A DNA stretch of 64,000 nucleotides from a virus. Its lineage: Duplodnaviria > Heunggongvirae > Uroviricota > Caudoviricetes. The notes below the pieces were generated by a model. That model saw only the letters and a list, made by a program, of their open reading frames with translations, made no database searches and was not told where the DNA came from. Made by a program: the position numbers and the translations under genes. Location: the IMG/VR virus record IMGVR_UViG_3300042889_001305. One strand, 5' to 3'. Positions 3,855 through 63,359 of this stretch are shown in pieces (position 1 is the stretch's first letter; the number at the start of each line of letters is the position of its first letter).

Positions 3855-3857
3855 ATC

Positions 3858-4571: not shown

Positions 4572-4605
4572 GTTGTTTTTTTTTATTGTTTTAATTTATT
4601 GTAAG

Positions 4606-4638: not shown

Positions 4639-4645
4639 ATTTATT

Positions 4646-39464: not shown

Positions 39465-39471
39465 AATTTAT

Positions 39472-39759
39472 TTATTTTGAAAAACTATTTGAAATTTCTA
39501 AATAATTTTCTGGTATTCTTAGTATTGTTCCATCGTTTACTGCGAATGGTGCATCGTGGATATTGTTAGCAGTTGCTATAATCCACCATAAGGATGCATC
39601 TCCGTAAAACTGATGTGCAAGTGTATCCAATCGGTCACCCGTCTGGGTCACTGCGTAAATATCAGTATCTCGTAATGGTATATTTGGATATATCTTTGTT
39701 CTGAAGACTTCCCTACCATCTTTGAGTTTTTGTATTTTATTATTTGTATATCTTGACAT
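39472..39759 (-). CDS. LysM-like tail protein (phage P2 gpX-like)
   Basis: TGDRLDTLAHQFYGDASLWWIIATANNIHD..DGTILRIP parallels P2 gpX QGDTLDAICVRYYGRTEGVVETVLAANPGL..GTAVELP. Confidence 0.55.
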   Translation of the reverse strand: MSRYTNNKIQKLKDGREVFRTKIYPNIPLRDTDIYAVTQTGDRLDTLAHQFYGDASLWWIIATANNIHDAPFAVNDGTILRIPENYLEISNSFSK

Positions 39760-39804
39760 AATTTAATTTATTTTTCACCGGATAGTTTACTATATTAAGG
39801 TGGG

Positions 39805-42414
39805 TTAGATTCCTTGCTCTTTAAGTGGGTTAACTCCGTTATTAACCATTCTGAACCACGTATTGTATCTCATTGCTACGGCAACTCCGGCTTTATTTAT
39901 AAAGAAACACATATCTCTACTTGATGTTTGTCCTTTATAGGTTACCGGTGCGTAATATGCAGTTTCAGTTGCTTTTTCAATACTACCATCACTAATTTTA
40001 CTACCTAATGCTATCTCATCGGCCATTCTAGCAGCTATCAAATCTGGTATACCAAGTTCATCTTTATAGTTTGTATACGCCTCTTTTCGAAGTTCTTCTG
40101 CCCTGGTTTCCGATTTTTTAATAATTGCAGCCAATAAAGCAGGGTCAATACTTTCTTTTGGTGTTTCTGCCGGCTGTCCTGTATCTAATGATTTTGGAGT
40201 TGAATCCATCCCTAACATACCGCCACTTGTTGATTCTGTCTTTGGTGGTTCAGTTTGTGCTACCCCCACACTATTAATTGGCGGTGGTGGTGTTGTTGGT
40301 TGAACTACTTGGATTGTATTTGTTTTTGTAATTACTGAAGTACCACCGGTTTTTGGTTCTTGACTTACAGTATTTGTATTACCAGATTGTTCAGCCTTTC
40401 TCTTATTAATTACTTTAACCGCCTCTTTAGAAATTGGAGTTCCATAAAGTTTAAGTTCTGAACCAACATTTTCAACAAATTTAAATTCCATTTGGACTTC
40501 AACTATTTTTGGTAATTGATTACCATTTACAGTTTCCCATGTACCATCATCAGGGAATGTGTACGAAAGAGAGTTTATAAATGCAGTTTTTCGTTGATAC
40601 ATATTACCCAATGTAAATTCAATAAATGGTGGATTTACTAAATTACTCTTATCAATAGTTGGATATGCTTTACCTGTTAAAAATTGAATTCGTTGCCACA
40701 TTGTTGATAATTCATTAGAATTCATACAATACATTTTTAATTGCAATGATAAGGTTCTTTCTACTCCACCATATGTGTAGTAACTATATGGATTACCGAC
40801 AAATTTAGCAGAATCCCAAGTTGGTGAAACAGTTTCACTTAAACTTGTTATTAGGGTTCTAAAATATACTTTTTTAGAATCACTTACACCTGCTATTGAA
40901 AATGTTACCAAATCTTTATCATCGCCATTACCAATACCACTTACTCCATACGAACTATTAATTAAATCACCATTATTACTTGTAATTCCATATTGCGTTT
41001 CTATTGTAGTAATTTTTTGGCCTCCTGCTACTCCACTATATGTATTAGTTGGGTCATTAGGCATAACAGCACCAGTATTATTTTTTATATCTTTAAATGC
41101 ATAGGGTGATGTACCAAATACACCATTTGTACCTCTTCTATCAATTCCATATACCGGTGATACTAATTTCAAATCAATACGTTCACTTACTTTTTCGTTT
41201 GTATAATCACCTAATTTTCCACTATAAGTGGTTGGAGTTGCAGTAGTTGTTTTAGTTTTTGCTTCAACTGCTTTATCTATTTCTGGTTTTGATTCAGTAC
41301 CTTTTAATTTATCTTTTATTGATGTAGCACTTTTTCCTAACTTTTCTTTAGCCTTACCAATTTCTGCAGAATCTTTTACTGCAGTATCGGTAGATTCAGC
41401 AGTTGGCATTCTTAAATTAGTTTCTGTACTATTTGATGTTATATATGAACTATATTTTTCATTATATGGTCTAGAATTATCAGCTCTTTCTTTAGCTTTT
41501 TCCTCTATAAGTTTGTCAAGTGCAGATGGGTCTGCAGTCTTTTTTAATTTTTGTTTTAGAGATGCAGTTGCATTTGCAGATGCCTCTCCTAATTTTTTCT
41601 TAGCATCAAGTTGTAATTGAGTTACTTTTTTGGTAATATCAGTTGCAGCTTTATCTACTTTACTTACTGATTTTGAATTAAATTTAACATTATCAATTTG
41701 TTTTGAATATGGTAGTTTTGAACTATATTCGTATTTATCAGTTGCACCTGCAGTATTAGTACCTAATGAGTTTGGATTACCAAATAGGGTAGTTCTCAAT
41801 TTATCTTTTACTAATGAGATACCTTGTCCTATTATTTGTTTGCCAATTGTTTTTGGATTACCACCACCAGTATTCTTTAAGAATCTACCAACGATTGTAC
41901 CCTTTGCATCATTTTTGATTTTTGAAAGAGTAATCATTGTATCTGGCTCTAATCCTGCTTGTAATTCTCCTGTATTATTTACATAAGTTGGTATCACATT
42001 TTGTGGAATACCTAAACGAGAATTTATACCATCTCTTGCTTGGTTTAGGGATGTTACTTTACCACCAAAAACAAATTTACCAAACTTACCACCGGTAATT
42101 GCACCTAATCCTTTACCAATCAATCCACCATCTCCTGCACTTCCACCCGTTGCCTGTTTCATTTTCTCAACCGATGATGTACTACGAGTTGCTATACGAA
42201 TTGCTTCGTTACCATATATTAATGGATTATTTAATTCTACCTTAGTTTTTATACGAATACCACTAAGTTCTTGTTCTATTAAAGTTAGTTTATCTGGTTT
42301 TACACTTTTTTCTTGTGTAGAACCTGCAAATAATTCTTGCACGGGAGTTAAGTCCAATATTTTTGGAGTTATATCTTTATTCGAACCTTTAAATAATTCT
42401 AATATTGTTGGCAT
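39805..42414 (-). CDS. Large tail/baseplate protein with a Lys-rich coiled-coil and Pro/Thr linkers
   Basis: 869 aa. It is downstream of the tape measure gene. It contains a TTPPPPINS linker. Confidence 0.45.
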   Translation of the reverse strand: MPTILELFKGSNKDITPKILDLTPVQELFAGSTQEKSVKPDKLTLIEQELSGIRIKTKVELNNPLIYGNEAIRIATRSTSSVEKMKQATGGSAGDGGLIGKGLGAITGGKFGKFVFGGKVTSLNQARDGINSRLGIPQNVIPTYVNNTGELQAGLEPDTMITLSKIKNDAKGTIVGRFLKNTGGGNPKTIGKQIIGQGISLVKDKLRTTLFGNPNSLGTNTAGATDKYEYSSKLPYSKQIDNVKFNSKSVSKVDKAATDITKKVTQLQLDAKKKLGEASANATASLKQKLKKTADPSALDKLIEEKAKERADNSRPYNEKYSSYITSNSTETNLRMPTAESTDTAVKDSAEIGKAKEKLGKSATSIKDKLKGTESKPEIDKAVEAKTKTTTATPTTYSGKLGDYTNEKVSERIDLKLVSPVYGIDRRGTNGVFGTSPYAFKDIKNNTGAVMPNDPTNTYSGVAGGQKITTIETQYGITSNNGDLINSSYGVSGIGNGDDKDLVTFSIAGVSDSKKVYFRTLITSLSETVSPTWDSAKFVGNPYSYYTYGGVERTLSLQLKMYCMNSNELSTMWQRIQFLTGKAYPTIDKSNLVNPPFIEFTLGNMYQRKTAFINSLSYTFPDDGTWETVNGNQLPKIVEVQMEFKFVENVGSELKLYGTPISKEAVKVINKRKAEQSGNTNTVSQEPKTGGTSVITKTNTIQVVQPTTPPPPINSVGVAQTEPPKTESTSGGMLGMDSTPKSLDTGQPAETPKESIDPALLAAIIKKSETRAEELRKEAYTNYKDELGIPDLIAARMADEIALGSKISDGSIEKATETAYYAPVTYKGQTSSRDMCFFINKAGVAVAMRYNTWFRMVNNGVNPLKEQGI

Positions 42415-42416
42415 AA

Positions 42417-44975
42417 TTAAGCTCCCATTAATCCAAATCGGTTTTCACCACTTTTTTCGTTTGTTTTCACTACTGCTGATGAAACTTTTTCTTTATCCAT
42501 ATAGACATCTCTATTAGAATATACCGCTGAGATTAATTCATCTAATTTAGCAACAACTGCAGTGTTATCTTGTCCTCCACCCATCATACCACCCAATAAT
42601 CCACCAATACCAGTTCCTAAGCCTGTAGCAATTGTTTCCAATAAACTAGCAGGGTCTTTAGTTGCTAATAAAACATCCGCTGGATTTGTTCCTATTACTT
42701 TACCATCTTGAACCACACCATCGTTAATACTTGAAGTTGTTGCGGTACTTCCATCAGTTTTTGCTTCATCACTTATTCCTAAGAATGAACCTATCGAACT
42801 AAATACACTCCCTATTCCGTTTACTGCCCACATAATCGGGTCTACTATATATTTAGAAATTGTATCTCCTATAAAACTAATTACATCATATATCAATCCA
42901 AATCCTTTTACTAAGAAATCTACAAAAAATCCAATTGCTCCACCTACTAATGAACCAAATATTTTACCAATACTACTAATAACTCCAATTATTGGTTGTG
43001 CAAATTTCATCATTACTTCTTTGAATTCACCTATTTTTAAAAACAATGGTTCTAATGCATCAAACGCAGCTTCAAATGGAGTAAGTAATGCATTTGTTAT
43101 TGCAGAACCGATTGCTACTAATGGCATGACAATTGCAGATATAACATCATAAACTGCTTTAAGTGGTTTGAATACCATTTTAAACGCCAATCCTATAACT
43201 CTAAATATCGGTAATAGAACTGCGTTTAATATTGTAAATAAATCATTTAATACTGGCATTACAAATGCTGCTATTGGTTCGAACATATCACTAAATCCAG
43301 TTTTAAGAGCAGATGAACTATTTGCAAGGTTATCCATTACTCCTTGCATATCCTTTTGAGATGATAATCGTTTAGTTTGTAAATCTAAATCCTCTTTTGA
43401 TAATGAAGTGATATCTCTACCAGAATCCATTAAGGACATTGCCGATGCTAATTGTTCTGAATTTAATTTACCAAATTGTTCTCTAATTCTTTGTTGATTT
43501 ATTAAATCACCCATTTGCATACCAGTTGCTTTAGTAAGAGCATCTTGTTCAAATTTATTTAATTTTGTTAAATCACCTAAACTCGATACTTGGTCTAATA
43601 CAGCCTGTTGTGCACCCAATATGTCATTATTAGCTGCTAGATATCTTGCTTGAGAAAGATTTAGGTTTGTTCCTAATATTGCACTTGCTTCTAATTCTGA
43701 GGTAATACTACTTTCAAAATCCAAAAGATTATCTGCAACTGCACCTGCTTCTTTAATCGATGTTCCTAATTTTGCTGCTTGAACTGCTGCTTTAGCTAAT
43801 TCTTTTGGAGAACCATTAAAATAACGATATGCATATTCAGAACTCTCCGCCATATCTGCTATTACCTTTGAAGGTGCAACCCCAGCCATCTTTGCCATTT
43901 CAGCAGTTTGACCGATTAGTGCTTGTGATTGTGCGGCAGTTAATCCACCTATATTTTGAAATACTTTATTTAATTCGGCACCTTGTTCTACCCCAACACC
44001 AAAGTTTTTATTCAACATAACCATAGAACCCAACACTTCTCTTGAAGGTTGCTCTAGCCCGCCAAATGTTTGTGTAAACGCGGTTGCAGATTTACCTACA
44101 TCTTCTGCACTTACACCTAATCCTGCGAATTCAGTTGATACTGCTTTTATGTTACCTTGTAAAGTTCTAGTTTGAGAATTTAATAATCCGGTTTCCTCTC
44201 TAAAAGATTTTGCTGCTGCTTCTATTTCTTTAAATCTCTCCAACCCTACTTCAAATGCTTTGTATAAAGCATATGCAATTAATGCAACTGCTGCAACTAC
44301 TGCGACAACGGATAATATTGCTATCCCTTGAGGTCCTAACAATCCCATTATCATATTTTTAGCAGAACCAAATCCTCTACTTAATCCGGAAGTAAATGAT
44401 TCCATCATATTAGAACCCTTATTAGTTGCTTGAGTAAATCCCGTTTTGAACTGAGTCATAAAACGTTTTTTTACTGCATCTATACTTCCTTTTGCTTTAT
44501 CTGAGAAGGGTGTCCAAAATCTATTAAATAGTGTTTCCCCTATTATGGGTATACCTTTTATTTTTTCACCAATGGAATCTAATGATTTTACAAATTTATT
44601 TTGTAAATTATCTGCAATTCGTTGGGTTTCATTTATTATTTTTAATCTAGCTAATTCCTTTTTTACAATAGCATCTGCTGCATCTAATTGTGCTAGATAC
44701 GTTGATTTCATTTTTTCATTAACACCAAAATTTGATTGTAGGACTTGTCCTTTTTGGGCCGATAATTTAATTAGAGCCTCTTCGTAGGATTTTTCATCCT
44801 TTAATGAGTTTAACACTTTTTTAGTTAAACTTATTTCTTCAAATATTTTTTTATTGCGCAAATCAGAAGCTTCAGCAGTTTCTTCAATAGCCCTCTTCAT
44901 ATCACCTATGATAGATGAGGTATATTTGACTGCATCTTGATATTCTTTTTCTTCTGCTGTTTTATTTTTTGCCAT
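42417..44975 (-). CDS. Tail tape measure protein
   Basis: 852 aa. Coiled-coil N-terminal region. Hydrophobic and Gly-rich segments (IAILSVVAVVAAVALIAYALY, GLGTGIGGLLGGMMGGG). It sits in the expected position after the tube and chaperone genes. Confidence 0.7.
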   Translation of the reverse strand: MAKNKTAEEKEYQDAVKYTSSIIGDMKRAIEETAEASDLRNKKIFEEISLTKKVLNSLKDEKSYEEALIKLSAQKGQVLQSNFGVNEKMKSTYLAQLDAADAIVKKELARLKIINETQRIADNLQNKFVKSLDSIGEKIKGIPIIGETLFNRFWTPFSDKAKGSIDAVKKRFMTQFKTGFTQATNKGSNMMESFTSGLSRGFGSAKNMIMGLLGPQGIAILSVVAVVAAVALIAYALYKAFEVGLERFKEIEAAAKSFREETGLLNSQTRTLQGNIKAVSTEFAGLGVSAEDVGKSATAFTQTFGGLEQPSREVLGSMVMLNKNFGVGVEQGAELNKVFQNIGGLTAAQSQALIGQTAEMAKMAGVAPSKVIADMAESSEYAYRYFNGSPKELAKAAVQAAKLGTSIKEAGAVADNLLDFESSITSELEASAILGTNLNLSQARYLAANNDILGAQQAVLDQVSSLGDLTKLNKFEQDALTKATGMQMGDLINQQRIREQFGKLNSEQLASAMSLMDSGRDITSLSKEDLDLQTKRLSSQKDMQGVMDNLANSSSALKTGFSDMFEPIAAFVMPVLNDLFTILNAVLLPIFRVIGLAFKMVFKPLKAVYDVISAIVMPLVAIGSAITNALLTPFEAAFDALEPLFLKIGEFKEVMMKFAQPIIGVISSIGKIFGSLVGGAIGFFVDFLVKGFGLIYDVISFIGDTISKYIVDPIMWAVNGIGSVFSSIGSFLGISDEAKTDGSTATTSSINDGVVQDGKVIGTNPADVLLATKDPASLLETIATGLGTGIGGLLGGMMGGGQDNTAVVAKLDELISAVYSNRDVYMDKEKVSSAVVKTNEKSGENRFGLMGA

Positions 44976-46912: not shown

Positions 46913-49312
46913 TTATGCTGAGAACGATGCTCCAGTCGGTAAGATGTTGAAATCTAACACGATGAATTCAGCGGTTTTTGTTGGTTGTAAGAAAATCTGT
47001 CCAGCCAATATATTTCTATCAATTACATCAGGAGTGTTATTACTCTCATCCATTACTACTCTAAATGCATATAAACCTTGTCTTTGTTGAATTGCTTCTA
47101 AATAAGGATTAACTGTATTTAAGAATCTTGAACGAGTGGTAGAAGTATTTTGTTCGAATACTAAGTATCTTGATGTAGAAGCGATATACTTCTTAACTTT
47201 GATAAGTAATCTTCTAACATTGATTCTATCTAACGCTGATGATTTTTCTTGTAATGTTTTCTGTCCAAATGCCACGATACCCTCGCCAGGGAAAGATGCG
47301 ATAGGATTTATTTTTCCTTCGTATAATGTATCTCTCTCTGCGTGTGTTAATCTATTCAATACTGAAACTGCTCCTACGATTCCACCACGATTTAAACCAG
47401 CTGGTGCGAACCATTCTGCTGCAACCGCATCATTTGCTGCGTAAATACCTGGCATCAATACTGATGGTGGTACTGCAGTTAATTTGTTAGTGTTTCTATC
47501 GATTGTCTTAACCCACGGGTAATAAGTACCTACATAGTTAGAATCTACTGCTGCACCTTGTGCAACTGCTTCATCAATTGTATCATTACCACCATCACAA
47601 CCAACTACATCACCAATGAAGAATACATCTTCACGATTCTCACACATTTCACTTATGTAATCAAATACATATGAGTGATGTCTACGAACTATACCTGGTG
47701 CTGCGATTAAGTTGATATCAAAATCATCAGGGTTAGATACTGCGTTGATTGCTTTTACATATGCAACCGAACCACTTGCAATTGATGTTGCTAAGTTAAA
47801 TCCTTGTGAATTACCTGCTGATATATCCACACCTTTGTTAATTGTTTTTGCTGGCGTTGTACCATCAAATCCACCTTGAAACGCTAAAGTAAATTGTCTT
47901 TTAGCAATTGTTTCGGCCGAATCATCAGTTGATAATGAATAACCAAAATTATATGTTCCAACCGAACCACTTACAATAGCAGTAATATCTGCATCAAATG
48001 TAAAATCAGTATTTCTACCAGTACTAAATTCAGTTCCCGGTAATGGTTTTAAATATTGTGTATTATTTATTTTTACTGCAGTAGTTTCTAAATCAATACC
48101 AGAGTATCTATATGCAGATGATGCTGTATTATTAACAGAACCCGTTGAATATATAACTGCAGGAACGATTGTTTCTATCGTTGCATCGATTGGATTGATG
48201 TATGCACCATGTCCAAAAGGTGCTGCTATGATAGGGAATGAACCTTCAGCTGCAACTTTTACTCTAACTAATTTAGAACGATTTGCGTAATCACCAGTTT
48301 CAGTTTGTTTACCATTTGCATCAATTGTTAATGTTCTATCACCAATTACTTTAGCAATATAGTTTGGAGATGCAGGGTCTAAGTTAACGTTATTATATGT
48401 TTCTTTTACTGATTTTTTTCTATCAGTATCACTAAATCCACGAACTACTATTGAGAATGTAGCGTAATCAGTTGCACCAGATACTCCTGCTGCTTTGACG
48501 TTAAAAATACTTATTTTATATTCGGTATTGTATGGATTACCATCACCTAATGTTTCAAATTTAAATAAATCGTGGCGTTGACCGCTAATTAATTGAGATT
48601 TAACCATTGGTGTTTCTGCGTATGTAATACCATTAGTATCAGCTCCAAATACTTGAGTTGGTAATTGAACTAATGAAATAGAACCAGAACCTGCAGATAA
48701 GTATGCACTTAAATCAGTAGCTGTTTTTTCAAAGTATGTATACACATATGCTTTTTTAGTTCCAAATGGAGATTCTCCAAATACATCACCAATATCATTT
48801 CCTTCTGAAGGGTCAATTGATGCTGAACCATTATATGCAATATTACTTCCACTAATTGTAAAATAACTATCAGTTGATGTCCCGTTTGCAAATACTATTG
48901 AACCAGTAGCAAATCCGGTTGATTCACTACCACTTAATGTAGCGTGTAATGTACCGATGATATGTTCACTACCACTTGCATATGTTCCTGTAGCAGAACC
49001 AGATTCTAATGTTACTTTAATACCAATTGGTGCTACTTGTGAATAACCACCTAAGTGACCAACACGAACAATTGTAACTGTTCCTGCTTCTCTTAGATAG
49101 TTTTGTACTGCGTACCCTGTATAGTATGTTCCATCAGGTGTACCGAATATTTCTTCAAATTCTGATTGTGTATTTACGATAGTTGGTAAGAATGCTGGTC
49201 CTTTACTAAAAGGTCCTACTATTGCTGCTCCAATTTCTCCGATACCCTGTGATAAAAATGATAAATCATTCTCTCTTGTGAATACACCAGGTGATACAAT
49301 TTTTTCTGCCAT
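46913..49312 (-). CDS. Contractile tail sheath protein
   Basis: The N-terminus MAEKIVSPGVFTRENDLSF is the typical sheath ...SPGVY/F.E.D.S start. I take the ATG at 49310-49312, which is preceded by AGGAGTAAATAAA. The track's GTG at 49348 adds 12 residues of doubtful coding. Confidence 0.8.
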   Translation of the reverse strand: MAEKIVSPGVFTRENDLSFLSQGIGEIGAAIVGPFSKGPAFLPTIVNTQSEFEEIFGTPDGTYYTGYAVQNYLREAGTVTIVRVGHLGGYSQVAPIGIKVTLESGSATGTYASGSEHIIGTLHATLSGSESTGFATGSIVFANGTSTDSYFTISGSNIAYNGSASIDPSEGNDIGDVFGESPFGTKKAYVYTYFEKTATDLSAYLSAGSGSISLVQLPTQVFGADTNGITYAETPMVKSQLISGQRHDLFKFETLGDGNPYNTEYKISIFNVKAAGVSGATDYATFSIVVRGFSDTDRKKSVKETYNNVNLDPASPNYIAKVIGDRTLTIDANGKQTETGDYANRSKLVRVKVAAEGSFPIIAAPFGHGAYINPIDATIETIVPAVIYSTGSVNNTASSAYRYSGIDLETTAVKINNTQYLKPLPGTEFSTGRNTDFTFDADITAIVSGSVGTYNFGYSLSTDDSAETIAKRQFTLAFQGGFDGTTPAKTINKGVDISAGNSQGFNLATSIASGSVAYVKAINAVSNPDDFDINLIAAPGIVRRHHSYVFDYISEMCENREDVFFIGDVVGCDGGNDTIDEAVAQGAAVDSNYVGTYYPWVKTIDRNTNKLTAVPPSVLMPGIYAANDAVAAEWFAPAGLNRGGIVGAVSVLNRLTHAERDTLYEGKINPIASFPGEGIVAFGQKTLQEKSSALDRINVRRLLIKVKKYIASTSRYLVFEQNTSTTRSRFLNTVNPYLEAIQQRQGLYAFRVVMDESNNTPDVIDRNILAGQIFLQPTKTAEFIVLDFNILPTGASFSA

Positions 49313-49404
49313 TTTATTTACTCCTATTAAGTTTGTGTAATGATACACATATAAGTATTAGATACTTTTTCTAAAATATTATTTTATATATGCGTAACGT
49401 AGTA

Positions 49405-49674
49405 TTATTCTGCGATTGGTGTGAATTCTCCCGTTGTAGGGTTGTAATCACCATCTCCGTATTTTTCATTTAATCCTTTAAATAAGGTTTCTTCCGTTAT
49501 AACTAAATCCGAATGTTGTTTAGTTAATTCTGCTTCTCTTTCTTCTAATTCTGACAATCTTCTTCTTTTTTCAATATGAATTTGTCCTAATTCAGTAAAA
49601 ACAGCCCCAACATCAATTCGTAATTTGTTAATTTGTGCGACTTCGTCTTCCGTAAACTTAATTTTTTCTGCCAT
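49405..49674 (-). CDS. Hypothetical small coiled-coil protein
   Basis: 89 aa, ATG start. Confidence 0.4.
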   Translation of the reverse strand: MAEKIKFTEDEVAQINKLRIDVGAVFTELGQIHIEKRRRLSELEEREAELTKQHSDLVITEETLFKGLNEKYGDGDYNPTTGEFTPIAE

Positions 49675-49743: not shown

Positions 49744-51021
49744 TTATCTAACAAATGAATAAGCAGATGTCCAAGCACCTTTAAGACCTTGGTCAATTGC
49801 TCTAACTCTAGCATACCACGTACCTGCAGTTAATAGGGTATTAACTTCAATAGTTGTAGTACTCCATTCCGTATTATCTACTATATTTGTAGCAAATGTA
49901 TTTCCAGATGATATTTGTATATCATATGCAGTAATACCAGCTGTTCCAACTGCAGTAGGTGCTACCCAACTTAAACTTGGAGATGCATATGCTAATGAGG
50001 TTGGTGCACCAGGAGCTCCTAAATCCGTAAATGCGTTACCACCTTTATTATGGGTAATATATCCATTTACTAAATAGGTATCTTCTGCTTCCACATCTAA
50101 TGATACGATTTCAGATGTTTCTTCATCAATTGTTATTGATGTTATATCTATTTCTTGTGTATTACCATTTTCAAATTTAATTAATTTATCATTAAGATTT
50201 AAATTAAACATTTGTTTAAATCTATATAAATTATCAGTAGAATCTTTAACTAATAATGGATGTTCTGATGTAGCAGTGATTTCACCATTATTAACATTGT
50301 AATATTTACCAGTAAATGAATATATTACATTCACAACTGTTACTTCTTTTTCAGTTTTATTTAATTCAGATGTAGACCAATCATAGAATGTGCCATCTGA
50401 ATCGATTGATAATCCACTTAAAGAAAATCCTTTTAATTTATCACCTTCTTCAATTTGGCCAACTTCCTTAATAGAACCATCAGCCATTGTTATTGGTGAA
50501 TCAGATGTTAAACATAATGCAACGGAGTTACCATCATAAGAATCTACGGAATAAACCGTCTTATCTCTAGAAGTATTATACCCAGTTGCGTGTGTATTAT
50601 ATCCATCTGCAAATATTGCTCTAATAGTATGAGTTTGAATTGTTTGTAGTACAGTCTGTGCACCTACCCCTTGTGGGTTCATTGATGATATACTAAAACT
50701 AGCGGTTGTACCACTATTTGTTCCTAATGTTATGAATGACCCAGCAGGAACACTCCATGTGAAGTTTGCTGCTCTACTACTAATTCTATCAAAATTTGCA
50801 CCAGCACCACTAAACCCTAATGTATAAGTTTCACTTGTAGATTCAACTCCGTATGTATAACCAGTTACTGAACCTACCGAATCAATTGCAAATGATGACA
50901 TTGAAATAGGACCGGTTGAATTTCCCTTTGCTGCTGATAATGCTCTTGGTCCTGCTGCAACACCTGTTGCTGCACCTAATGAATTTAAACTTTTGGTTTG
51001 TCCTGATGTTAATGTTGCCAT
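49744..51021 (-). CDS. Virion-associated protein with an internal Hint (intein/BIL-like) domain and a C-terminal fibronectin type III domain
   Basis: Residues about 170-325 read CLTSDSPITMADGSIKEVGQIEEGDKL (Hint block A), ATSEHPLLV (TxxH block B), and EIVSLDVEAEDTYLVNGYITHN (C-terminal HN). The C-terminal about 90 aa (PGAPTSL...TWYARVRAIDQGLKGAWTSAYSF) looks like FN3. Confidence 0.6.
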   Translation of the reverse strand: MATLTSGQTKSLNSLGAATGVAAGPRALSAAKGNSTGPISMSSFAIDSVGSVTGYTYGVESTSETYTLGFSGAGANFDRISSRAANFTWSVPAGSFITLGTNSGTTASFSISSMNPQGVGAQTVLQTIQTHTIRAIFADGYNTHATGYNTSRDKTVYSVDSYDGNSVALCLTSDSPITMADGSIKEVGQIEEGDKLKGFSLSGLSIDSDGTFYDWSTSELNKTEKEVTVVNVIYSFTGKYYNVNNGEITATSEHPLLVKDSTDNLYRFKQMFNLNLNDKLIKFENGNTQEIDITSITIDEETSEIVSLDVEAEDTYLVNGYITHNKGGNAFTDLGAPGAPTSLAYASPSLSWVAPTAVGTAGITAYDIQISSGNTFATNIVDNTEWSTTTIEVNTLLTAGTWYARVRAIDQGLKGAWTSAYSFVR

Positions 51022-51032: not shown

Positions 51033-52031
51033 CTATTTATTATAAATATCTAATAATGAATCAATCCACTTATTCTTATCTGTATATTTTTTAATCATAT
51101 AATTTTTTATAATATTAAACCAATATAATTTTTCAGAATAAGATAATGTAGTAATCTTTGTATAAATATCAAAAAATTCAGTTTTAGACGATGCTCGGTA
51201 TGGATATTCTAAATCTTTACACCAACTCGAATGTAGTATTGGTAATTTACCTTTATCAACCGCTTCAAATATTGAATATCCAAAGGGTTCTGATATAAAC
51301 GCAGAGTGTGATATACCCCAATCCATATCATAAAATGTATCTTTAAAATCTGGAGTATAATGATATAATTTTGATTTTGAAATATCTACTTTTACCCCAT
51401 TTTTCCAAAGTACATTAAATTCTTGAGAGTTAGTAAAAATAAGACTAGGAATTTTATCTAAATAGTGTGGATTTTTTCTACCTTCACTTCTTGCTGCAAA
51501 TCCTAACCTATTAGATTCGGATAGTGGTAAATTCCATTTAAATTCGTAAAAATTTGGTATATTAGTATTTTTATAAAGTATTTCGTATAATCCTACCCAT
51601 ATATTAGTTTCACACCAATCAGTAACCTCTTGTTCCCATTCTGAACTCATATAAGGATGATGTCCTATTGGTAAATCACTTCCAAATTGAGATTTTAGGA
51701 TGTGGTCTATTGAATTGTGTAATATATTTGAATGGATTTTATCTTTATTATCTACGATTGGTTTCATTGGAGTATAATGTCCATGTAGGATATTAATTCT
51801 TCGTGCACCTTTACATAGTTCTTCAAATTTTTGAATATCTTCACCATGCCAGTAAGTTTCTATTGGGAATTCGTAATCTTCGTGTCCTTTGGGTTTGTTT
51901 CTATGAATTAGTAGAATTGGTTTAATATCTAATTTAGGTGCTATTAATTCTATCCAAAGATTTACCCAAATATCAGAACCTGCATTGACCCACGGTCCAC
52001 CACCTGTGGTATAATAAACATCGTAAACCAT
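51033..52031 (-). CDS. GT-B fold glycosyltransferase, putative
   Basis: The C-terminal block AFISEPFGYSIFEAVDKGKLPIL matches the GT1/GT4 signature E-x-F-G-x4-E-A-x3-G-x-P-v-i. 332 aa. Confidence 0.5.
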   Translation of the reverse strand: MVYDVYYTTGGGPWVNAGSDIWVNLWIELIAPKLDIKPILLIHRNKPKGHEDYEFPIETYWHGEDIQKFEELCKGARRINILHGHYTPMKPIVDNKDKIHSNILHNSIDHILKSQFGSDLPIGHHPYMSSEWEQEVTDWCETNIWVGLYEILYKNTNIPNFYEFKWNLPLSESNRLGFAARSEGRKNPHYLDKIPSLIFTNSQEFNVLWKNGVKVDISKSKLYHYTPDFKDTFYDMDWGISHSAFISEPFGYSIFEAVDKGKLPILHSSWCKDLEYPYRASSKTEFFDIYTKITTLSYSEKLYWFNIIKNYMIKKYTDKNKWIDSLLDIYNK

Positions 52032-52036: not shown

Positions 52037-53911
52037 TTATTTTTTAATTATAATTAGTCCAGAAAATAATCCAGCAAAAGTTATAGTTAACGCATTAACT
52101 GAGGTTGATTCTATAATTGAGGGAACTTCTTGTCTTTTATTAGTAGTATTCCATGCTTGAACTATTGGATATTCTTCACCCAAACTATGAGTGATTGAAT
52201 AGGTTGAATTACCACTAACTGTTTCCTTATAGGTTGTTAATGCAGTTATTTGTGAAGACCCACTCACCAACCCACTTGGCGTTCCTGCTAAGTTATTCCA
52301 AGATGTAGAACCACTTACTATATGTCCACCTTTAGCAACTACTGCGTATCCACTTTGAGCGGATGATAATACTATTGTTGCAGTATTATTATTAGTAAGT
52401 GTTACCGATGATGGTATTATTTGTGAATCATTTGTTCCGTATACTGAAACTAATACATTTTTAGTATTAAAATTATGGGTTACCTCAATAGTTGATTGGG
52501 TATCAAACGAAGATGTGATTGTTGCAACTTCTGCAATTTCAGTTACTACGTTTGTAATACCACTACCATCCCCAACAAAGAACGATGCAGTGATTGCACC
52601 ATTTCCTAAATTAATTGATTGACTTACTAATGATGAAATGATTTGGGTAGAAGATGATACAATGTTGCTTCCACCTAATATTTGTATCGACCCGGATATT
52701 AATGTTGGTAATGAACTAATTTCACTAAAAGTAATTTGAGATGACCCTGATACAATATTATCACCACTAGCAAGTAGTATTTTAGATTCAGACCCACTTA
52801 CTCCGCTTTTCCAATAATCATTAGTCGAATCCCATAATAGAGAACCACTAATAATAGAAGCACCGGTTGAATCTTTAACTAATAAACCACCATTTGCTAC
52901 ACCACTACCATTCAATTCAATAATATTATCACCTAATTGAATTGTAGTTGAGTTTACGGAGGTGGTTGTTCCTCTAACGGTCAAATCACCTAAAACAATT
53001 ACATTCGAACCTGTCAACTCTAACGCAGTTTTAAGAGAGGATGTATATGTGTTTAAAGATGCAGTTGATTCTTGTATTCTATCTAACTCACTATCAATTG
53101 AAGCAGTATATGTTGCAAGGGTTGAGTTCTTAGTATCTTGTGATTGTGTATACGAATTTAATGAACTCAATATACTAACTATCTGAGATGAACCACTTAC
53201 TAATCCGCTTGGTTTATTTGTATGATTTGTATAATCTAAATAATATGAACCGGATTCGCCATTTAATTTATTTGAATCATCTGCAGAACCACTAACAATG
53301 TGGCCACCTTTAGCAACTACTGCATAACCACTTTGAGCGGAAGTTAATACTATTGTTGCAGTATTTAAATCCGTAAGAGTTACTGATGATGGGATTATTT
53401 GTGCATAATTAGAATCGTATACTGAAATGATTACATTTCGTGAATTAAAATTATGACTAACTGATATGTTTGAGGAATTAAAGAAAGCGTAATTAACAGT
53501 TGCTACTTGAGAGATATCGGATGCGGGTAGATTTGTTAATCCACTACCATCTCCTCCAAATGAACCAGTGAAAGAACCACTAATAGTTCCTTCACCTAAT
53601 GTATTTAAATATCTTGAATCTAATGAGGATGTTAATTGAGATGAACCGGAAACCATTCCAGTCCCACCGAAAGTTATTTGAGAACCATTTCCTATGAAAT
53701 TTGAAGCCGTTATAGCACCACCGATATTAATTGAACCAGAAATTAGGGCATCAGTAACAACTATTGATTGTATGGAAGGGACTCCGTTATCTTTTTCAAA
53801 ATACAACTTACCATCGTAAGTGTTTATCGCCAACTCTCCTAACTCAAGAGTGTCGGTTGTAGGTGATTTTCCCTGAACTGCCGTTCTTTTTAGCTTTAAT
53901 ACTTGTGCCAT
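52037..53911 (-). CDS. Tail fibre protein
   Basis: It shares an N-terminus (MAQVLKLKR...) with the other four fibre genes. Internal duplications (YAVVAKGGHIVSGS twice). It also carries the shared module IQLGDNIIELNGSG..LLVKD..SGSLLWDSTNDYWKSG. Confidence 0.7.
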   Translation of the reverse strand: MAQVLKLKRTAVQGKSPTTDTLELGELAINTYDGKLYFEKDNGVPSIQSIVVTDALISGSINIGGAITASNFIGNGSQITFGGTGMVSGSSQLTSSLDSRYLNTLGEGTISGSFTGSFGGDGSGLTNLPASDISQVATVNYAFFNSSNISVSHNFNSRNVIISVYDSNYAQIIPSSVTLTDLNTATIVLTSAQSGYAVVAKGGHIVSGSADDSNKLNGESGSYYLDYTNHTNKPSGLVSGSSQIVSILSSLNSYTQSQDTKNSTLATYTASIDSELDRIQESTASLNTYTSSLKTALELTGSNVIVLGDLTVRGTTTSVNSTTIQLGDNIIELNGSGVANGGLLVKDSTGASIISGSLLWDSTNDYWKSGVSGSESKILLASGDNIVSGSSQITFSEISSLPTLISGSIQILGGSNIVSSSTQIISSLVSQSINLGNGAITASFFVGDGSGITNVVTEIAEVATITSSFDTQSTIEVTHNFNTKNVLVSVYGTNDSQIIPSSVTLTNNNTATIVLSSAQSGYAVVAKGGHIVSGSTSWNNLAGTPSGLVSGSSQITALTTYKETVSGNSTYSITHSLGEEYPIVQAWNTTNKRQEVPSIIESTSVNALTITFAGLFSGLIIIKK

Positions 53912-53977: not shown

Positions 53978-53999
53978 ACTATAACCCGTGTGGGTTATA
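53978..53999. repeat. Perfect 9 bp hairpin (ctataaccc-gtgt-gggttatag) at the 3' end of fibre gene 53995-55605
   Basis: The inverted repeat is visible in the sequence and overlaps the stop codon region. No clean U-run follows on the minus strand. Confidence 0.4.
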
Positions 54000-55605
54000 G
54001 TCCAGTTTCTAATTTATTAATTTTGTTTGATAAATCTTCGATTTGCTTTTGTTGTTCTTTTATACCTTCGATTAATAGAGCAACTAATTTGTCATATTTA
54101 ACCGCTTTATATCCATTATCACGAGTTACAACTAACTGTGGTAATACTTCTTCAATTTCTTGTGCGATTACACCGACATCGTTTCCTTCAAATCCATGTA
54201 TATCTTTATTTTCTGCTTTCCAATCGTATGTGTTACCACTAATCATTTTGATTTTTTCGATTGGAGATTGAATTGTTGTAATATTTTCTTTGAAACGAAT
54301 ATCTGAAGCAGAGAATGCTGTAATATCACCCGTTGCAGTTATTGCTCCGTTAATTGTTAAACCTGCGAAAGTTGGGGATGATGAAGTTAAAACTGCTTGG
54401 TTTAATACTGAACCATATCCTGTTGTAGATGATAGAGTTACTTGAGATGAACCACTAACCACACCAGTTGGTAAAATTGCAGTGACACTACCTGCGGTTA
54501 CTGTTCCTATTGTTGTAATAGAATCATCACCACTATATGTTCCACCCGCAACAGCTGCCAATGTAGCGTTATATGCTTGAACATCTGAACCGATTGCTAC
54601 TCCTAAGTTAGTTCTAGCAGTACCTGTATTTGTTAAATCTGATAAATTTGATGACTTTGATAATTTACCATCTACTAAAGTATTTAAAGTAGAATCACCA
54701 CTTGCAAGTGATGCAGAAATTTCTAATAAAGTATCAAACGCTGCACTAGCACCACCGATTAAATCAGTTAATTCTTGTTGAACGTATGCAGTAGTAGCAA
54801 TTTGAGTTGAATTTGTATTTACTGCAGCAGTTGGTGCTATTGGAGTACCTGTAAATTCAGGAGAAGTAAACATTGTTGCTTTACTTTCATTTGTTACGTT
54901 TCCTAAACTAACATGAGTAGCAGTTACACCACTAACAGTTCCAGTAAATGTAGGAGAAGTAAACATTGTTGCTTTACTTTCATTTGTTACGTTTCCTAAT
55001 GATAAGAAAGTTTTAACATTTGAAGCCGAACCACTTACTACTGCTAATGAATTGTTATATGCTAAAACATTTTCATCAAAATTAGTAATCGAATCTGCGT
55101 TTACTTGTGAACTACCACTAACAACGCCAGTTGGTAATGTTGAAGTAAGTTGTGCAGAACCAGAGATTACACCGGTTGGTAACAATTCAGTTACTTGAGT
55201 AGAACCACTTACAATTCCAGCTGGGATTGAAGAGATACTAGCATAAGTTATTTGAGATGACCCACTAACCAATCCTCTACCCTTTGTTTCATAAGATGAA
55301 GTTGCAGAGTTTAAGTTTGAAAGTTGTGTATCAACTGATGCGGTATAAACTGCAAGAGTTGAGTTCTTAGTTTCTAACGATGATGTATACGATTCAATTA
55401 AATCTAATCTAGCATCTTGAGAGCCAGTATCAATATTTAATTGTTGAATTTTAGTTTCTAATGATGCAGAAAAAGTCTTAGGGTCTCCCAAACCTGCAAC
55501 TGAACCACTAAACGAACCACTATATATACCATTATCTGGTAAGGTGAATGTTGCACCATTTGCAAAGGTTAGTGAACCTGAAATTATGGGACTATGTATT
55601 ATCAT
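53995..55605 (-). CDS. Tail fibre protein with a C-terminal intramolecular chaperone (peptidase S74-like) domain
   Basis: The C-terminus SASDIRFKENITTIQSPIEKI...YDWK...GVIAQEIEEVLPQLV...YKAVKYDKLVALLIEGIKEQQKQIEDL carries the SDxRxKxNI autocleavage motif. The N-terminus is repeat-rich (S/T/G). Confidence 0.7.
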   Translation of the reverse strand: MIIHSPIISGSLTFANGATFTLPDNGIYSGSFSGSVAGLGDPKTFSASLETKIQQLNIDTGSQDARLDLIESYTSSLETKNSTLAVYTASVDTQLSNLNSATSSYETKGRGLVSGSSQITYASISSIPAGIVSGSTQVTELLPTGVISGSAQLTSTLPTGVVSGSSQVNADSITNFDENVLAYNNSLAVVSGSASNVKTFLSLGNVTNESKATMFTSPTFTGTVSGVTATHVSLGNVTNESKATMFTSPEFTGTPIAPTAAVNTNSTQIATTAYVQQELTDLIGGASAAFDTLLEISASLASGDSTLNTLVDGKLSKSSNLSDLTNTGTARTNLGVAIGSDVQAYNATLAAVAGGTYSGDDSITTIGTVTAGSVTAILPTGVVSGSSQVTLSSTTGYGSVLNQAVLTSSSPTFAGLTINGAITATGDITAFSASDIRFKENITTIQSPIEKIKMISGNTYDWKAENKDIHGFEGNDVGVIAQEIEEVLPQLVVTRDNGYKAVKYDKLVALLIEGIKEQQKQIEDLSNKINKLETGL

Positions 55606-55651: not shown

Positions 55652-56296
55652 TTAAATTGAACCGCCATCTATACTAGATATTGTTGTTGCATTTGCTGTT
55701 CCTGTCACATCTCCGCTCAATGTTATTTGAGCCGAACCACTAAATAAACCAAGTACATTTACTTGATTTGTTACTGAAGCATCAAAACCTATAATTTTAC
55801 TCGAATCAATCGAACCACTAAGAATATGACCACCTTTTGCTACAACTACATAACCACTTCTAGCGGATTCGAATGTAATTGTTATAGTATTATCGTCAGT
55901 ATGTCTTAATGTTGATGGGATTATTTGATATCCTTCTGCATCAAACACTTGTGCTATTGCATTGGGAGTATTCAAATTATGGTTAACTACCCAACTTGAT
56001 GAAGCAGTAAAAGAACGTTGAACTGTTGCTGCTTGTGCAACTGTTATATTTTCTAACCCACTACCATCACCTTTAAAAAATGATGCGGTAATTGAACCTG
56101 TTATATTAAGGTTACCAGCAATGGCAGTTGAAGTATTAGTTGTTACTAATGATTCTATCGAATCTACTGAACCTGACTTTCTAAAAAATACCTTACCATC
56201 GGTAACGTTCATTGCTATTTCACCATATTGTAGTGAACCAGTTTCAGGTATTGCTCCAGCGGTCGTTGACCTTTTGAATTTAATAATTTGTGCCAT
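55652..56296 (-). CDS. Short tail fibre protein
   Basis: It shares the N-terminus MAQIIKFKR with the other fibres. 214 aa. Its start overlaps the stop of the 1295 aa fibre by 1 nt. Confidence 0.6.
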   Translation of the reverse strand: MAQIIKFKRSTTAGAIPETGSLQYGEIAMNVTDGKVFFRKSGSVDSIESLVTTNTSTAIAGNLNITGSITASFFKGDGSGLENITVAQAATVQRSFTASSSWVVNHNLNTPNAIAQVFDAEGYQIIPSTLRHTDDNTITITFESARSGYVVVAKGGHILSGSIDSSKIIGFDASVTNQVNVLGLFSGSAQITLSGDVTGTANATTISSIDGGSI

Positions 56297-59200
56297 TAAT
56301 TTTCTATTTTGGTTTTTAAATATTCCACTTGTTTGGTTAATTCCTTAATACCTTCAATTAAAACGGATACTAATTTATCATATTTAACTGCTTTGTAACC
56401 ATTTTCTCTTGTTTGTACTAATTCTGGGAATACTTCTTCAATTTCTTGAGCGATTACTCCGTAATCTTTACCACTATAAATAGATTGCAACTCATCATTC
56501 CATTCAAACTCACAGCCATTAATTTTAGAAATCTTTTCTAATGGGGATTCGATTGGTTTGATATTATTTTTTAATCTAATATCTGATGATGCAAAAGCAA
56601 CAATATCACCACCTGCATTGATACCACCACTTACCCCTATACCACCTGTTACGATAAATGCACCAGTTGTTTTATCAGTCGATGCGGTAGCATTTGAAAT
56701 GGTAATTGCATTTGTTGTAGATGCACCGGTATCAGTTATTTGTTGTAATGTTCTTGTTACTTGTGATGAACCTGAAATTACTCCATCAACATCTAATTTA
56801 GCTTTAACGTTTGAATCAAAGTTTGTAATTGAATCAGCATCTACTTGAGATGAACCTGAAACTACTCCGCTTGGTAACAATAATATAATTTGTGAACTTC
56901 CACTAACTACTCCCGAAGGTAGTGTTGCGGTAAGTTGCGATGAACCCGATATTACTCCGTTTGTAGCGTTTATTACTCCATTAAATGAAGTTGCAATTAC
57001 ATCACCTATTGTTGTAAGTGAACCTGTTATTTGAACTGAACCTGTAAATTCATGTGTATCATTTCCAAAATCACCAAACCTATTAGAGCCACTACTGAAT
57101 ATAACCGATGCAGTTTCACTAATTGTTGTTAAATTAACAATAGTTAAATCCGTAATAGTTGTTCCACTTAATTGAGATGAACCAGAAATTATTCCGGCTG
57201 GGATTGATGAAATATCTGCGTATATTATTTGAGAACTACCACTAACAATTCCTGCTGGAATAGAACTAATGTTTGCATATGTTATTTGAGAACTTCCACT
57301 TACCAACCCACTTCCACCAAATATTTGAGAACTTCCACTAACAATTCCTCTACCATTTGTTTCGTAAGATGAAGTTGCACTATTTAAATTTGATATATGA
57401 GAATCAATCGAAGCTGTATAAATAGCAAGAGTTGAATTCTTTGTATCTTGTGAAGATGTATATGAATTTAATGAGGTTAATGGAATTAATCTAGCATCAA
57501 CACCATTTGTGAAATGTGTAGAACCAGTATTTAATGTAAGAGTTACATCACCTGATAATCCTCCTCCACCTAAACCATCACCTGCACTTACCGATAAAAT
57601 GTCTGCAACAGCTGCTGCAGCTAAAAGTTCTTCGGTTCTCCAATCTATATATTTTTTTGTTGCTCCTGCAGTGAGTAAATGATTATTTGTATAATTAATA
57701 CTTCCACTTACTAATACTACATCAACCGATGATGTTACATTATAAAATGCGGCTGAACCTAATGATACTAACGGATTTGCACCCAATAAAGTAGCAAAAG
57801 ATGCCGATGGTGCATATCTTAAATCATATGAACCAGTCAATTGTTGTGAACCACTAACTACACCAGTTGGTAATAATGATGGTATCTGTGAAGAACCACT
57901 AACTATGCCCGCCGGAATTGATGATAATGATGTGTATACTACTTGAGATGAACCACTTACTACTCCATTTGTTGCGTTGATTTCGCCGATGATTGAACCA
58001 GTAAATCCTGCTGATGCACTTACTGCACCTGTTACATTTAACGAAGAACCAACAAATACACCATTTACACCAACAATAGAAACTGTTTGTGCACTATCAT
58101 CTATTTTTAAGTAATTGGTATCGTCACCAAAGTAGTTGAAATCTGTATTACCTTTAAAGTGAATATCATTACCCGAAGGTGCAGCAGTATTATAAATTTG
58201 AAAATATCTTGCATCATTAACATCAGGTTGTAAAAATATATTTCCAATACCTTTAATTTCATTAGTTACTATTAAAGAAGAACTTATTATTTGCTCACCT
58301 TTAAATGTATTTGAACCGGTTGTTGCAAATGAACCAGTTAAATTTTGTAATGTTAAATTCTTAGTATCTAAACTTGATGTATAATTTCCTAAAGTTAAGT
58401 TCTTAGTATCTTGTGAAGATGTGTAAGAATTTAATGATGAAGTTGATTCGTGTATTCTAGCTAAATCTAAATCAATTGAAGCAGTATAATTTCCTAAAGT
58501 TGAATTCTTAGTATCTTGTGAAGATGTGTATGAATTTAATGATTTTATTCTATCATCAACTGATTGTGAATATGTTGAAAAATTAGTTACATCATTTAAA
58601 TTTATTTGAATTGATGATGATATAACACCTTCTACATTTAATCTTGTTTTAATACCACTTACATAATTTGTAGTTGATGTTAAATCAATCTGTGATGAAC
58701 CAGAAACTACACTATCACCTTCAGCTAAAAGTATTTTAGATTCAGCACCTAATTTACCACTTTTCCAATAATCATTAACCGAATCCCAAAGTAAAGAACC
58801 TGATATCGTTGATACTGCAGTTGGGTCTTTAACTAATAAACCACCATTTGCTGCTCCCGTACCATTTAATTCGATAATGTTATCACCTAATTGAATTGTA
58901 TTTGAATCTAATGTAGTTTGTGTTCCTTTAACAACTAAGTTTCCTAAAATTGTTACAGATGAACCAGTTAATTCAATTGCATTTTTTAATGATTGAGTAT
59001 ATGATAAAACTGATGCGGTTACATTTAATAATGTTTCCCATTTAGTATCAATTGAAGCAGTATAAATTGCTAAAGTTGAATTCTTAATTGATTGAGACCA
59101 TAAAGTATCATCAACCGAACTACTTTTTAGTTCTAAATTATTTAATCTACCATTAACACTTTCAGTATAAATTCCAAGTGTTGAATTCTTAGTATCTTGT

Positions 59201-63300: not shown

Positions 63301-63359
63301 TTTGTAGCACTTGATACGGATTCTAACGAACCCCTCCTATGTTTAATTATTTGTGCCAT
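60342..63359 (-). CDS. Tail fibre protein (1005 aa) with repeated DADSITNFDENVKAKLDADGVISGS units and two copies of the shared LLVKD..SGSLLWD module
   Basis: The N-terminus MAQIIKHRR is shared with the other fibres. It has a repetitive S/G/T-rich beta architecture. Confidence 0.7.
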   Translation of the reverse strand: MAQIIKHRRGSLESVSSATKRAGELLVVTGSAGITATNGNSILFVGIDGSTVTPANKILQGTATPDLTGATYDTSIDGIPFYNTSTEKLFIVNKGGNVEVKATANTGGTGIVSGSGQVAALLPTGTISSSAQVDADSITNFDENVKAKLDADGVISGSAGIIPLLPTGTVSGSSQISYVSISSIPAGIVSGSSQVTFSEISSLPTLVSGSSQIDADSITNFDSNVKSKLDADGVISGSAGIIPLLPTGTVSGSSQVDADSITNFDENVKAKLDADGVVSGSSQVVGILSALNTFSSSQESKDSTLATYTASVDTSLSAINSYTSSLRAAFTASGADVTFSGNVTIPGNFTVAGTQTIVDSTTVQIGDNIIELNGSAAANGGLYVKDATAPNTATGSLLWDTTNDYWKAGVKDSEIKILLAGGDSVVSGSSQITISSTTGFTDYSSSVATAISASTAAATWENLNGKPGGIVSGSAQVVANLSGSNVNLAGISGSSLNITGNAKIDGNLTLGGNITIGDATTDTVSFAADLTSDIIPSGSNVRSLGSDTRLFANVYATNVYGAINATNGIVSGSSQILGGSGLFSSSAQVNADSITNFDENVKAKLDAETVVSGSSQITYANISSIPAGIVSGSSQLDSTTINLATLTNVSASGSFSGSHFGTFSGDGSNLTGIASTLAFSGSTGNDTLNLKTEALLVTGSNSISAAVTGNTITITADNASTSAKGVASFSSTNFDVTSGNVAIKANGVTAATLNADVAGTGLSLDGGDNSLKVDYGSTSGTAVEGNTSLTVQGTANEIEITGGSVTLGSGGTVTIGLPDNVTVSGSFTANGDVFLGNSTADSVTIAGNLYVQGTTTTVDSTTVQIGDNIIELNGSGAANGGLLVKDVTNPNTASGSLLWDSTSDYWKAGALGSEKELARFSATPTSGSVQVVGASGLFVNSQISDDAVKVTIGTDLVITGLTANSFVVSNGSKKLISVTPSNAGDLIQWNGSSFIASNELDGGTF

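Follow-up and report, generated by a model that had tools for sequence, protein, structure and literature searches.

The DNA considered here is a window (meaning throughout the whole stretch that was analysed) of 64,000 nucleotides from IMG/VR virus record IMGVR_UViG_3300042889_001305, assigned to Caudoviricetes, and the element in question is a Hint (intein-like) domain within a protein of 425 amino acids (aa) encoded on the minus strand, beside a partner gene of 332 aa. The reading favoured for this protein, at a probability of roughly 0.45, is that the stretch encodes a catalytically competent Hint domain resembling type-A bacterial intein-like (BIL) domains, set between a conserved beta-sandwich and a replaceable module, and that the protein is processed by a ligation dependent on Lys326. 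The parts of this reading differ in strength. Residues C170-N325 almost certainly form a real Hint fold; active autoprocessing by the domain is likely, as judged from its residues; and ligation dependent on Lys326 as the productive outcome is a tentative proposal, with chances that fall a little short of even. The open reading frame (ORF) and its parts are laid out as follows.

49744..51021, minus strand: whole Hint ORF, 425 aa plus stop, comprising the beta-sandwich cargo, the Hint domain, a Lys-Gly linker and an FN3-like domain
50515..51021, minus strand: N-extein or cargo, residues 1-169, with short N-terminal helices and a beta-sandwich
50047..50514, minus strand: Hint (BIL-type) domain, C170-N325, 156 aa, of mini-intein size and with no endonuclease insert
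50512..50514, minus strand: Cys170, Hint position 1, the predicted nucleophile of an N-S acyl shift
50260..50271, minus strand: block B, T251-S-E-H254 (TxxH), which aligns with TFDHP of the C. thermocellum BIL
50047..50052, minus strand: block G, His324-Asn325, the predicted Asn-cyclisation site, which aligns with the terminal LVHN of 2lwy
50041..50046, minus strand: Lys326-Gly327, positions +1/+2 of the C-extein, invariant among close homologues
49747..50010, minus strand: FN3-like beta-sandwich, residues 338-425, the variable C-extein module

The Hint domain, its junctions and its relatives

The original prediction had placed an intein-like domain at 50047-50514, which is exactly the span from C170 to N325, and the motifs quoted for it (CLTSDSPITMADGSIKEVGQIEEGDKL, ATSEHPLLV and TYLVNGYITHN followed by K326) are all found in the translation of the Hint ORF, in which Cys170 is the sole cysteine of the 425-aa protein. 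An AlphaFold2 model, built with 54 homologues (mean pLDDT 77), shows three domains, with the Hint domain between an N-terminal beta-sandwich and an FN3-like sandwich and lying in a flexible inter-domain linker region. The FN3-like domain is evidenced by the beta-sandwich modelled at residues 342-424, by a family profile that matches titin FN3 (E 6e-7), and by homologues with precomputed PF00041 matches. The earlier description of the product as an FN3 protein is correct as regards this C-terminal domain, but the conserved unit is the N-domain together with the Hint domain, and the FN3 module is replaceable.

NCBIfam TIGR01445 (intein N-terminal splicing region) matches residues 170-258 at 28.4 bits against a cut-off of 24.5, covering profile positions 1-83 of 83. 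Foldseek searches of the PDB with the Hint part returned the BIL2 domain of Tetrahymena thermophila BUBL1 (6y75 and 6tmm, TM 0.66-0.68) as the top Hint match (E 3.8e-7, TM 0.68), along with the C. thermocellum type-A BIL 2lwy (TM 0.73), the Ssp DnaB mini-intein 1mi8 (TM 0.68) and Hedgehog 6tyy (TM 0.64), all at a probability of 1.00. With these matches and the invariant residues described below, the domain, which has C1, TxxH and the HN terminus, is upheld as a member of the Hint superfamily. A profile made from 27 diverse Hint domains of the family places 2lwy first (E 4.4e-11) and BIL2 second (about 7e-9), with weaker matches to the best true intein (2.8e-6) and to Hedgehog (3e-3). In sequence, the domain lies nearer to BILs than to either inteins or Hog domains, and the BIL kinship proposed at the outset stands, as the closest solved relatives by both Foldseek and profile are BIL domains.

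Pfam Intein_splicing is sub-threshold on the query (18.6 bits), yet the alignment reaches the end of the profile (155/155) at N325. PT-HINT (PF07591, gathering score 27.7 bits) does not match the query and scores 16.7-25.7 bits on relatives, and some precomputed matches to it exist among the homologues. Since all Pfam Hint families remain sub-threshold, the domain represents a divergent, uncatalogued Hint branch, closest to the type-A BILs.

A cluster search (5.8 billion clusters) returned 607 homologues, the best 120 of which span the full length (415-430 aa) with identities of 58% or more. In the alignment with these best homologues, C170, T251, E253, H254, P255, H324, N325, K326 and G327 are each present in 121/121 sequences, a set that includes C170, T251, H254, H324 and N325, the catalytic residues whose positional conservation had been named beforehand as a test, and the outcome clearly favours the original prediction. 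The 27 diverse Hint domains share 23-67% identity with the query, and no column of their alignment is invariant other than Cys1, the block-B His, E304, V310, His324, Asn325 and Lys326, with the block-B Thr and Gly327 nearly invariant; C1, the block-B His and HN are therefore retained down to 23% identity. As the +1 Lys is among these few columns, it is conserved exactly as strongly as the catalytic residues, which suggests that it takes part in the chemistry. The original prediction had treated the +1 position as lacking a nucleophile. The absence of Cys, Ser or Thr is correct, and it rules out class-1 splicing, in that the branched intermediate on one of these residues is excluded, but the Lys found there is as invariant as the catalytic residues (121/121 here, and 118/118 in the short-tail subfamily described below).

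The N-domain, the Hint domain and FN3 have mean pairwise identities of 66%, 71% and 67%, respectively, and the best-conserved stretch of the protein is residues 156-169 (SVDSYDGNS.AL), just before Cys170, at 95%. In block F the family reads DTY or DVY in place of the HNF of inteins. Judging from the conservation pattern, selection appears to act on both of the predicted junction chemistries, a thioester at Leu169/Cys170 and Asn cyclisation at Asn325/Lys326.

An exhaustive profile search of 1.8 billion representatives found the N-domain and the Hint domain always together, as a constant unit, and a varying module after HN. The C-exteins seen are FN3, a Laminin_G_3 lectin-like domain of ~240 aa, the same LamG type with a glycine-rich domain (in a 933-aa protein), and almost nothing. 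Members of the last type form a short-tail subfamily, found by a second search seeded with a short-tail member, in which HN is followed by KG in 118/118 sequences with a recognisable C-terminus. The proteins end 7-9 residues after HN in 113/118 cases, with a conserved tail KG[SAN]xS[DEN]P, and several members are marked as complete genes by the source. The shortest tails comprise 2-9 residues (KH in LR756508, KGSNSDPF in others), and one short-tail homologue ends in HN followed by KGSNSNPF.

The Hint protein of LR756508, a 484-kb uncultured phage, has an unrelated cargo domain, ends in HN followed by KH, and carries SxxQ instead of TxxH in block B. In LR756508.1 124000-134000 (L006; ORFs 2765-3484 and 3499-4797), a Hint-less cargo paralogue precedes the Hint protein and a homologue of the partner gene follows it. 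Some loci possess a second cargo-Hint gene across the partner gene, ending in HQ without a C-extein or in HN followed by VHDK, and these variants, as read from their termini, can only support N-junction chemistry. Examples are listed here.

L087 515-1213 and L003 5470-6822: second cargo-Hint genes upstream of the partner gene, ending in ...CHQ or in HN followed by VHDK, directly before the stop

All genomic contexts of the Hint family that were examined are phage, and, when clustered at 90% identity, the family from marine and freshwater phages still numbers hundreds of clusters. Other phages carry C-terminal Hint domains without a partner gene, with HN followed by A in Phage NCTB and by T in an Erwinia jumbo phage. 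With Ala or Thr at +1 in these partner-less domains, the fold has no general need of Lys, which is specific to the present lineage.

The partner gene and variation at the locus

The gene transcribed just before the Hint gene, which the original prediction had missed, is conserved with it.

51033..52031, minus strand: partner gene, 332 aa, with its stop codon 11 nt before the Hint ATG and AGGA in the gap

The product is probably a GT-B (GT4-like) glycosyltransferase, according to a structural model with a pLDDT of 50 and a GT-B-like motif in the protein. Partner homologues, at 34-72% identity, directly adjoin the Hint gene in every lineage examined. The pair is present in a 289-kb contig of the same family (L001), in three short-tail loci without a sheath neighbour (L003, L004 and L005), and in three contigs from metagenome-assembled genomes (MAGs); the scan of genome contigs yielded only six small MAG contigs, which are probably phage fragments. 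Adjacency was also found in 80/80 viral contigs retrieved with the partner alignment, a count that is not independent evidence because these contigs are all close relatives. In LR756508 the pair is kept though the order is reversed (Hint gene first) and the cargo is unrelated. A scan of viral contigs with the LR756508 partner protein gave no relatives, and cultured phage records contained no partner homologue, the single match being the uncultured record LR756508 itself.

In the short-tail loci the pair lies within a large putative glycosylation cluster, with several Glyco_transf_7N/7C-Laminin_G_3 fusions, Methyltransf_24, radical-SAM enzymes and a UDP-glucose dehydrogenase, and this cluster adjoins giant S74-bearing fibres.

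The Hint gene is a variation hot spot. In contigs L007, L009 and L016 the partner is 93-96% identical to that of the window, with 71-73% identity for the Hint protein and 63-65% for the Hint module, and contig L013 is the reverse mosaic, with a Hint module 93% identical to that of the window and flanks at ~80%. The Hint module appears, from these comparisons, to exist as at least two divergent, recombining alleles.

Proposed processing and its alternatives

The closest of the known systems is the type-A BIL, as defined previously (PMC4031507; PMC7765530), whose C. thermocellum representative 2lwy is the best match both by profile and by fold. The likeness extends to the N-terminal Cys, TxxH, the terminal His-Asn, the lack of Cys, Ser or Thr at +1, the absence of an endonuclease and the inter-domain position, and a thioester and Asn cyclisation would be expected here as well, with cleavage and some amine-mediated ligation (PMC4031507). 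The original prediction had held that BILs cleave rather than ligate, which was too narrow, as type-A BILs can ligate through the amine freed by Asn cyclisation, although cleavage is dominant (PMC4031507). In contrast to the hypervariable secreted bacterial proteins that carry type-A BILs, the host protein here belongs to a phage tail module, its flanks are conserved (95% in the N-flank), and the phage family has a fixed Lys-Gly at +1/+2 and an obligate GT-B-like neighbour gene. The +1 residue of the C. thermocellum BIL is Ala.

BIL2 of BUBL1, the top fold match and the second profile match, is reported to form a Lys-epsilon isopeptide without a Cys, Ser or Thr nucleophile (PMC8616854), and an invariant +1 Lys would permit such chemistry in the phage protein; BIL2 differs in being eukaryotic, zinc-regulated and placed between ubiquitin-like domains, with ~20% sequence identity to the phage Hint domain. 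Class-1 mini-inteins (Ssp DnaB 1mi8 and gp41-1 6qaz) share the fold, blocks A, B and G, a similar size and the C-terminal His-Asn, but the phage domain lacks the +1 Cys, Ser or Thr, an intein-free allele and a conserved active-site location, and by our own reading of the alignment its block F does not have the usual Asp/His pattern. Hedgehog/Hog proteins also have a conserved unit of cargo followed by Hint, as well as a fold match (6tyy), and some phage relatives likewise end with the Hint domain; however, Hog domains lack the C-terminal His-Asn and have a sterol-recognition region, whereas the phage family always keeps HN and has no region of that kind. PT-HINT differs in what follows the domain, the C-terminal modules here being FN3, Laminin_G_3, Gly-rich or short tails, and not a polymorphic toxin. 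Among phage proteins, those of phrog_38766 (Erwinia Alexandravirus gp111-like 'virion structural protein') and the Phage NCTB 'large intein domain protein' are fibre-like, lie in tail neighbourhoods and have a homologous C-terminal Hint domain followed by a tail of 7-10 residues, but their cargo is a collagen-like fibre or a 1304-aa protein and their +1 residue is Thr or Ala. The Peptidase_S74 chaperone is a functional analogue only, being a self-removing C-terminal module of virion fibres with an unrelated fold and Ser-Lys dyad chemistry.

In type-A BILs, a thioester forms, Asn cyclises and the freed amine attacks the thioester, with cleavage products dominating (PMC4031507; also PMC7664689, PMC7765530), and in Tetrahymena BIL2 a Lys-epsilon isopeptide is reported to arise through a splicing-type reaction (PMC8616854, section 2.4). 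For the phage protein we infer processing, a ligation step, a role for the partner and incorporation into the virion, along the following lines. Cys170, with T251 and H254, would carry out an N-S acyl shift that converts the Leu169-Cys170 bond into a thioester; Asn325, with His324, would cyclise and cut the Asn325-Lys326 bond; and the Hint domain of 17.4 kDa would be excised. The thioester would then be resolved mainly by an amine of Lys326, either the alpha-amine that Asn cyclisation releases, following the proposal for type-A BILs, or the epsilon-amine, which would stand in for the +1 nucleophile in the manner of Tetrahymena BIL2. From a precursor of 45.0 kDa, the predicted main product is a ligated N-domain-Lys-Gly-FN3 of 27.6 kDa, with hydrolysed fragments of 17.2 and 10.4 kDa as by-products, and the GT-B-like partner may act on the same protein or in the same reaction. 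Resolution by the amine of Lys326 is favoured because Lys-Gly is invariant at +1/+2, the short C-extein is conserved in sequence and length, and both flanks are conserved; retention of HN followed by KG between conserved flanks is the pattern that would be expected if the flanks were joined. A bolder form of the proposal, considered rather unlikely, is a natural 'lysine-class' splicing, in which the epsilon-amine of the +1 Lys would attack the Cys170 thioester and, after cyclisation of Asn325, leave an isopeptide between N-domain and C-extein, coupled to the partner enzyme, e.g., through glycosylation of the new junction or supply of an alternative acceptor.

Several points weigh against ligation through Lys326. 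The epsilon-amine of Lys is a poor nucleophile at neutral pH, and the alpha-amine mechanism alone gives no reason why the residue must be Lys. There is no obvious purpose in ligating a tail of 2-9 residues (KH or KGSNSDPF) onto the cargo, and in the relatives that end in HQ, or in HN followed by VHDK, beside the same partner, ligation through a +1 Lys is impossible. Lys326 could instead be a catalytic base, perhaps replacing the missing block-F His. Type-A BILs themselves give mainly cleavage products (PMC4031507, PMC7664689). The junctions of the AlphaFold model are of low confidence (pLDDT <50 at residues 162-170 and 326-334), and all Pfam Hint-family matches of the query and its relatives fall under their gathering scores.

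The same Pfam scores would agree with a catalytically inactive Hint fold that serves as a structural spacer or an interaction module, as would the replacement of TxxH by SxxQ in the LR756508 copy. Loss of catalytic residues would then be expected, however, and in >230 sequences, with identity as low as 23%, it is precisely these residues that stay unchanged, so this explanation is very improbable. Still less credit can be given to the idea that an ordinary mobile mini-intein entered a structural gene and later lost the +1 nucleophile. The layout of blocks A, B, F and G is intein-like, and Hint alleles have been swapped, with 63% identity where the neighbouring gene is 96% identical; but the domain has no homing endonuclease, its site is an inter-domain linker and not a conserved site, it is spread over lineages sharing only 23-36% identity, and the +1 residue is invariantly Lys and not a decayed residue. 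No Hint-less N-domain-FN3 homologue was found among the 150 best representatives (1.8 billion clusters), a collection of 15 billion proteins yielded no Hint-less allele, and apparent N-domain-only matches are frameshifted fragments; the mobile-intein reading is rejected for these reasons. The Hint domain is integral, vertically inherited and not mobile, and its rate of evolution matches that of its flanks. An isopeptide of the pilin type between Lys and Asn was also considered and was rejected, as the two residues are adjacent in sequence.

The remaining explanations accept an active domain and differ in the fate of the thioester. In cleavage-only maturation, which is possible though on the whole unlikely, the Hint domain would be a single-turnover self-protease, with the thioester hydrolysed and Asn325 cyclised, such that the N-domain, Hint and FN3 parts separate, or the N-terminal cut alone matters, and the N-domain is released into the virion or the cell, in a self-removal like that of the S74 intramolecular chaperones of the neighbouring fibres. 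Known BIL products are predominantly cleaved (PMC7664689, PMC4031507), the N-domain and Hint are conserved beside a C-extein that is dispensable or just 2-9 aa long, some relatives end in HQ with no C-extein, other jumbo phages have a C-terminal Hint domain with a short tail on fibre-like proteins, and self-cleaving S74 domains occur on fibres of the same gene block. This account nevertheless leaves unexplained why HN, the +1 Lys and the +2 Gly are as invariant as Cys1 even where the tail has 7-9 residues, and why that tail is conserved in sequence and length. A quite unlikely alternative is conjugation in trans, in the manner of Hedgehog or BUBL proteins, whereby an external nucleophile would capture the Leu169 thioester and the N-domain would be covalently anchored at its C-terminus to an acceptor, which might be a Lys on a different virion protein or else a sugar or amino-sugar that the GT-B-like partner makes or presents. 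For the covalent attachment suggested in the original prediction there is precedent in the Hedgehog Hint domain, which passes its cargo to cholesterol (PMC7765530), and in BIL2, which attaches ubl4 to lysines on several substrates (PMC8616854). The partner tracks the Hint domain and not the cargo, the pair in LR756508 persisting with a different cargo and in reversed order, short-tail loci lie inside glycosylation clusters, and relatives without a C-extein are limited to N-junction chemistry. This support is purely contextual, however, and the acceptors are candidates only; the GT-B assignment comes from a pLDDT-50 model and a sequence motif, adjacent glycosyltransferases may simply glycosylate the Hint protein, and the conserved HN followed by KG is left unexplained.

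Genomic setting and significance

The window has a G+C content of 33%, nearly all of its long ORFs lie on the minus strand, and no tRNA genes were found within positions 1-64000. A replication block encodes a family-B DNA polymerase, a DnaB helicase and a ribonucleotide reductase (RNR); the polymerase, the helicase and the RNR large subunit, which are usual hosts of inteins, contain no Hint domain, and C170-N325 is the sole Hint domain of the whole window. The Hint gene lies in a myovirus tail block that reads, in order of transcription, two long Peptidase_S74 fibres, two fibre-like proteins, the 332-aa partner ORF, the Hint protein, an 89-aa ORF, an 811-aa sheath, a gp19-type tube and a gp26-like hub. 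A megablast of the 10 kb around the Hint gene against known phages gave no similarity at the DNA level, and a scan for promoters and terminators around the Hint-partner pair gave the same result as shuffled sequence. The other features of this region are given below.

53995-55605 and 56296-60183, minus strand: tail fibres of 536 and 1295 aa, with C-terminal Peptidase_S74 intramolecular-chaperone (self-cleaving) domains
52037-53911 and 55652-56296, minus strand: fibre-like proteins of 624 and 214 aa, both matching phrog_21918 and phrog_16122
49405-49674, minus strand: acidic ORF of 89 aa, probably coiled-coil, between the Hint and sheath genes, with no family match
46913-49348, minus strand: sheath of 811 aa with a GTG start, unusually long, with a large insertion between conserved N- and C-terminal parts
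36957-44975, 26104-28347 and 60342-63359, minus strand: five ORFs of 747-1005 aa with no PHROG match, the 1005-aa ORF also having no Pfam match

With the S74 fibres and the Hint protein, the tail block would contain two unrelated autoprocessing systems within 10 kb. The 624-aa fibre-like protein contains an internally duplicated module of ~70 aa (NHNFN..NV..SVYD..QIIPSSVTLTD.NTATIVL.SAQSGYAVVAKGGHIVSGS), which is found in the 214-aa protein too. The 89-aa ORF is kept at the same position in the 289-kb contig L001, at 62% identity. The nearest sheath is that of Microcystis phage Mel-JY01 (47% identity), and the next is that of LR756508, which shares the Hint-partner pair. The three ORFs in 36957-44975, just downstream of the tube and hub genes, probably encode an undescribed type of baseplate or tape-measure-like component. 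A search of PHROGs with the query Hint protein gave no match, and relatives alone reach phrog_38766; from this match in the Hint region of the relatives, and from the position of the gene between tail-fibre and sheath genes, the Hint protein is presumed to be virion-associated.

The full-text literature searched contained no description of this phage Hint family or of a cassette of GT-B-like and cargo-Hint genes, and yielded only ordinary terminase and RNR inteins and general reviews of BILs. The family is different from the described BILs in its phage tail-module host, its conserved flanks, its fixed Lys-Gly junction and its obligate GT-B-like neighbour, and the comparison reveals a tightly linked two-gene cassette consisting of a GT-B-like enzyme and a cargo-Hint protein. 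Hint domains that work without a +1 Cys, Ser or Thr are rare and in demand as tools for ligation. A large natural family with a fixed +1 Lys-Gly and a C-extein reduced to as few as 2-9 residues is thus a testable candidate for amine-mediated, possibly isopeptide, ligation. For the phages themselves, the Hint protein would mean that tail-gene blocks can hold a further type of self-processing module besides the S74 chaperone. If the lysine-class reading were true, protein splicing would gain a new mechanistic class, one that phages use in building a tail-associated protein.

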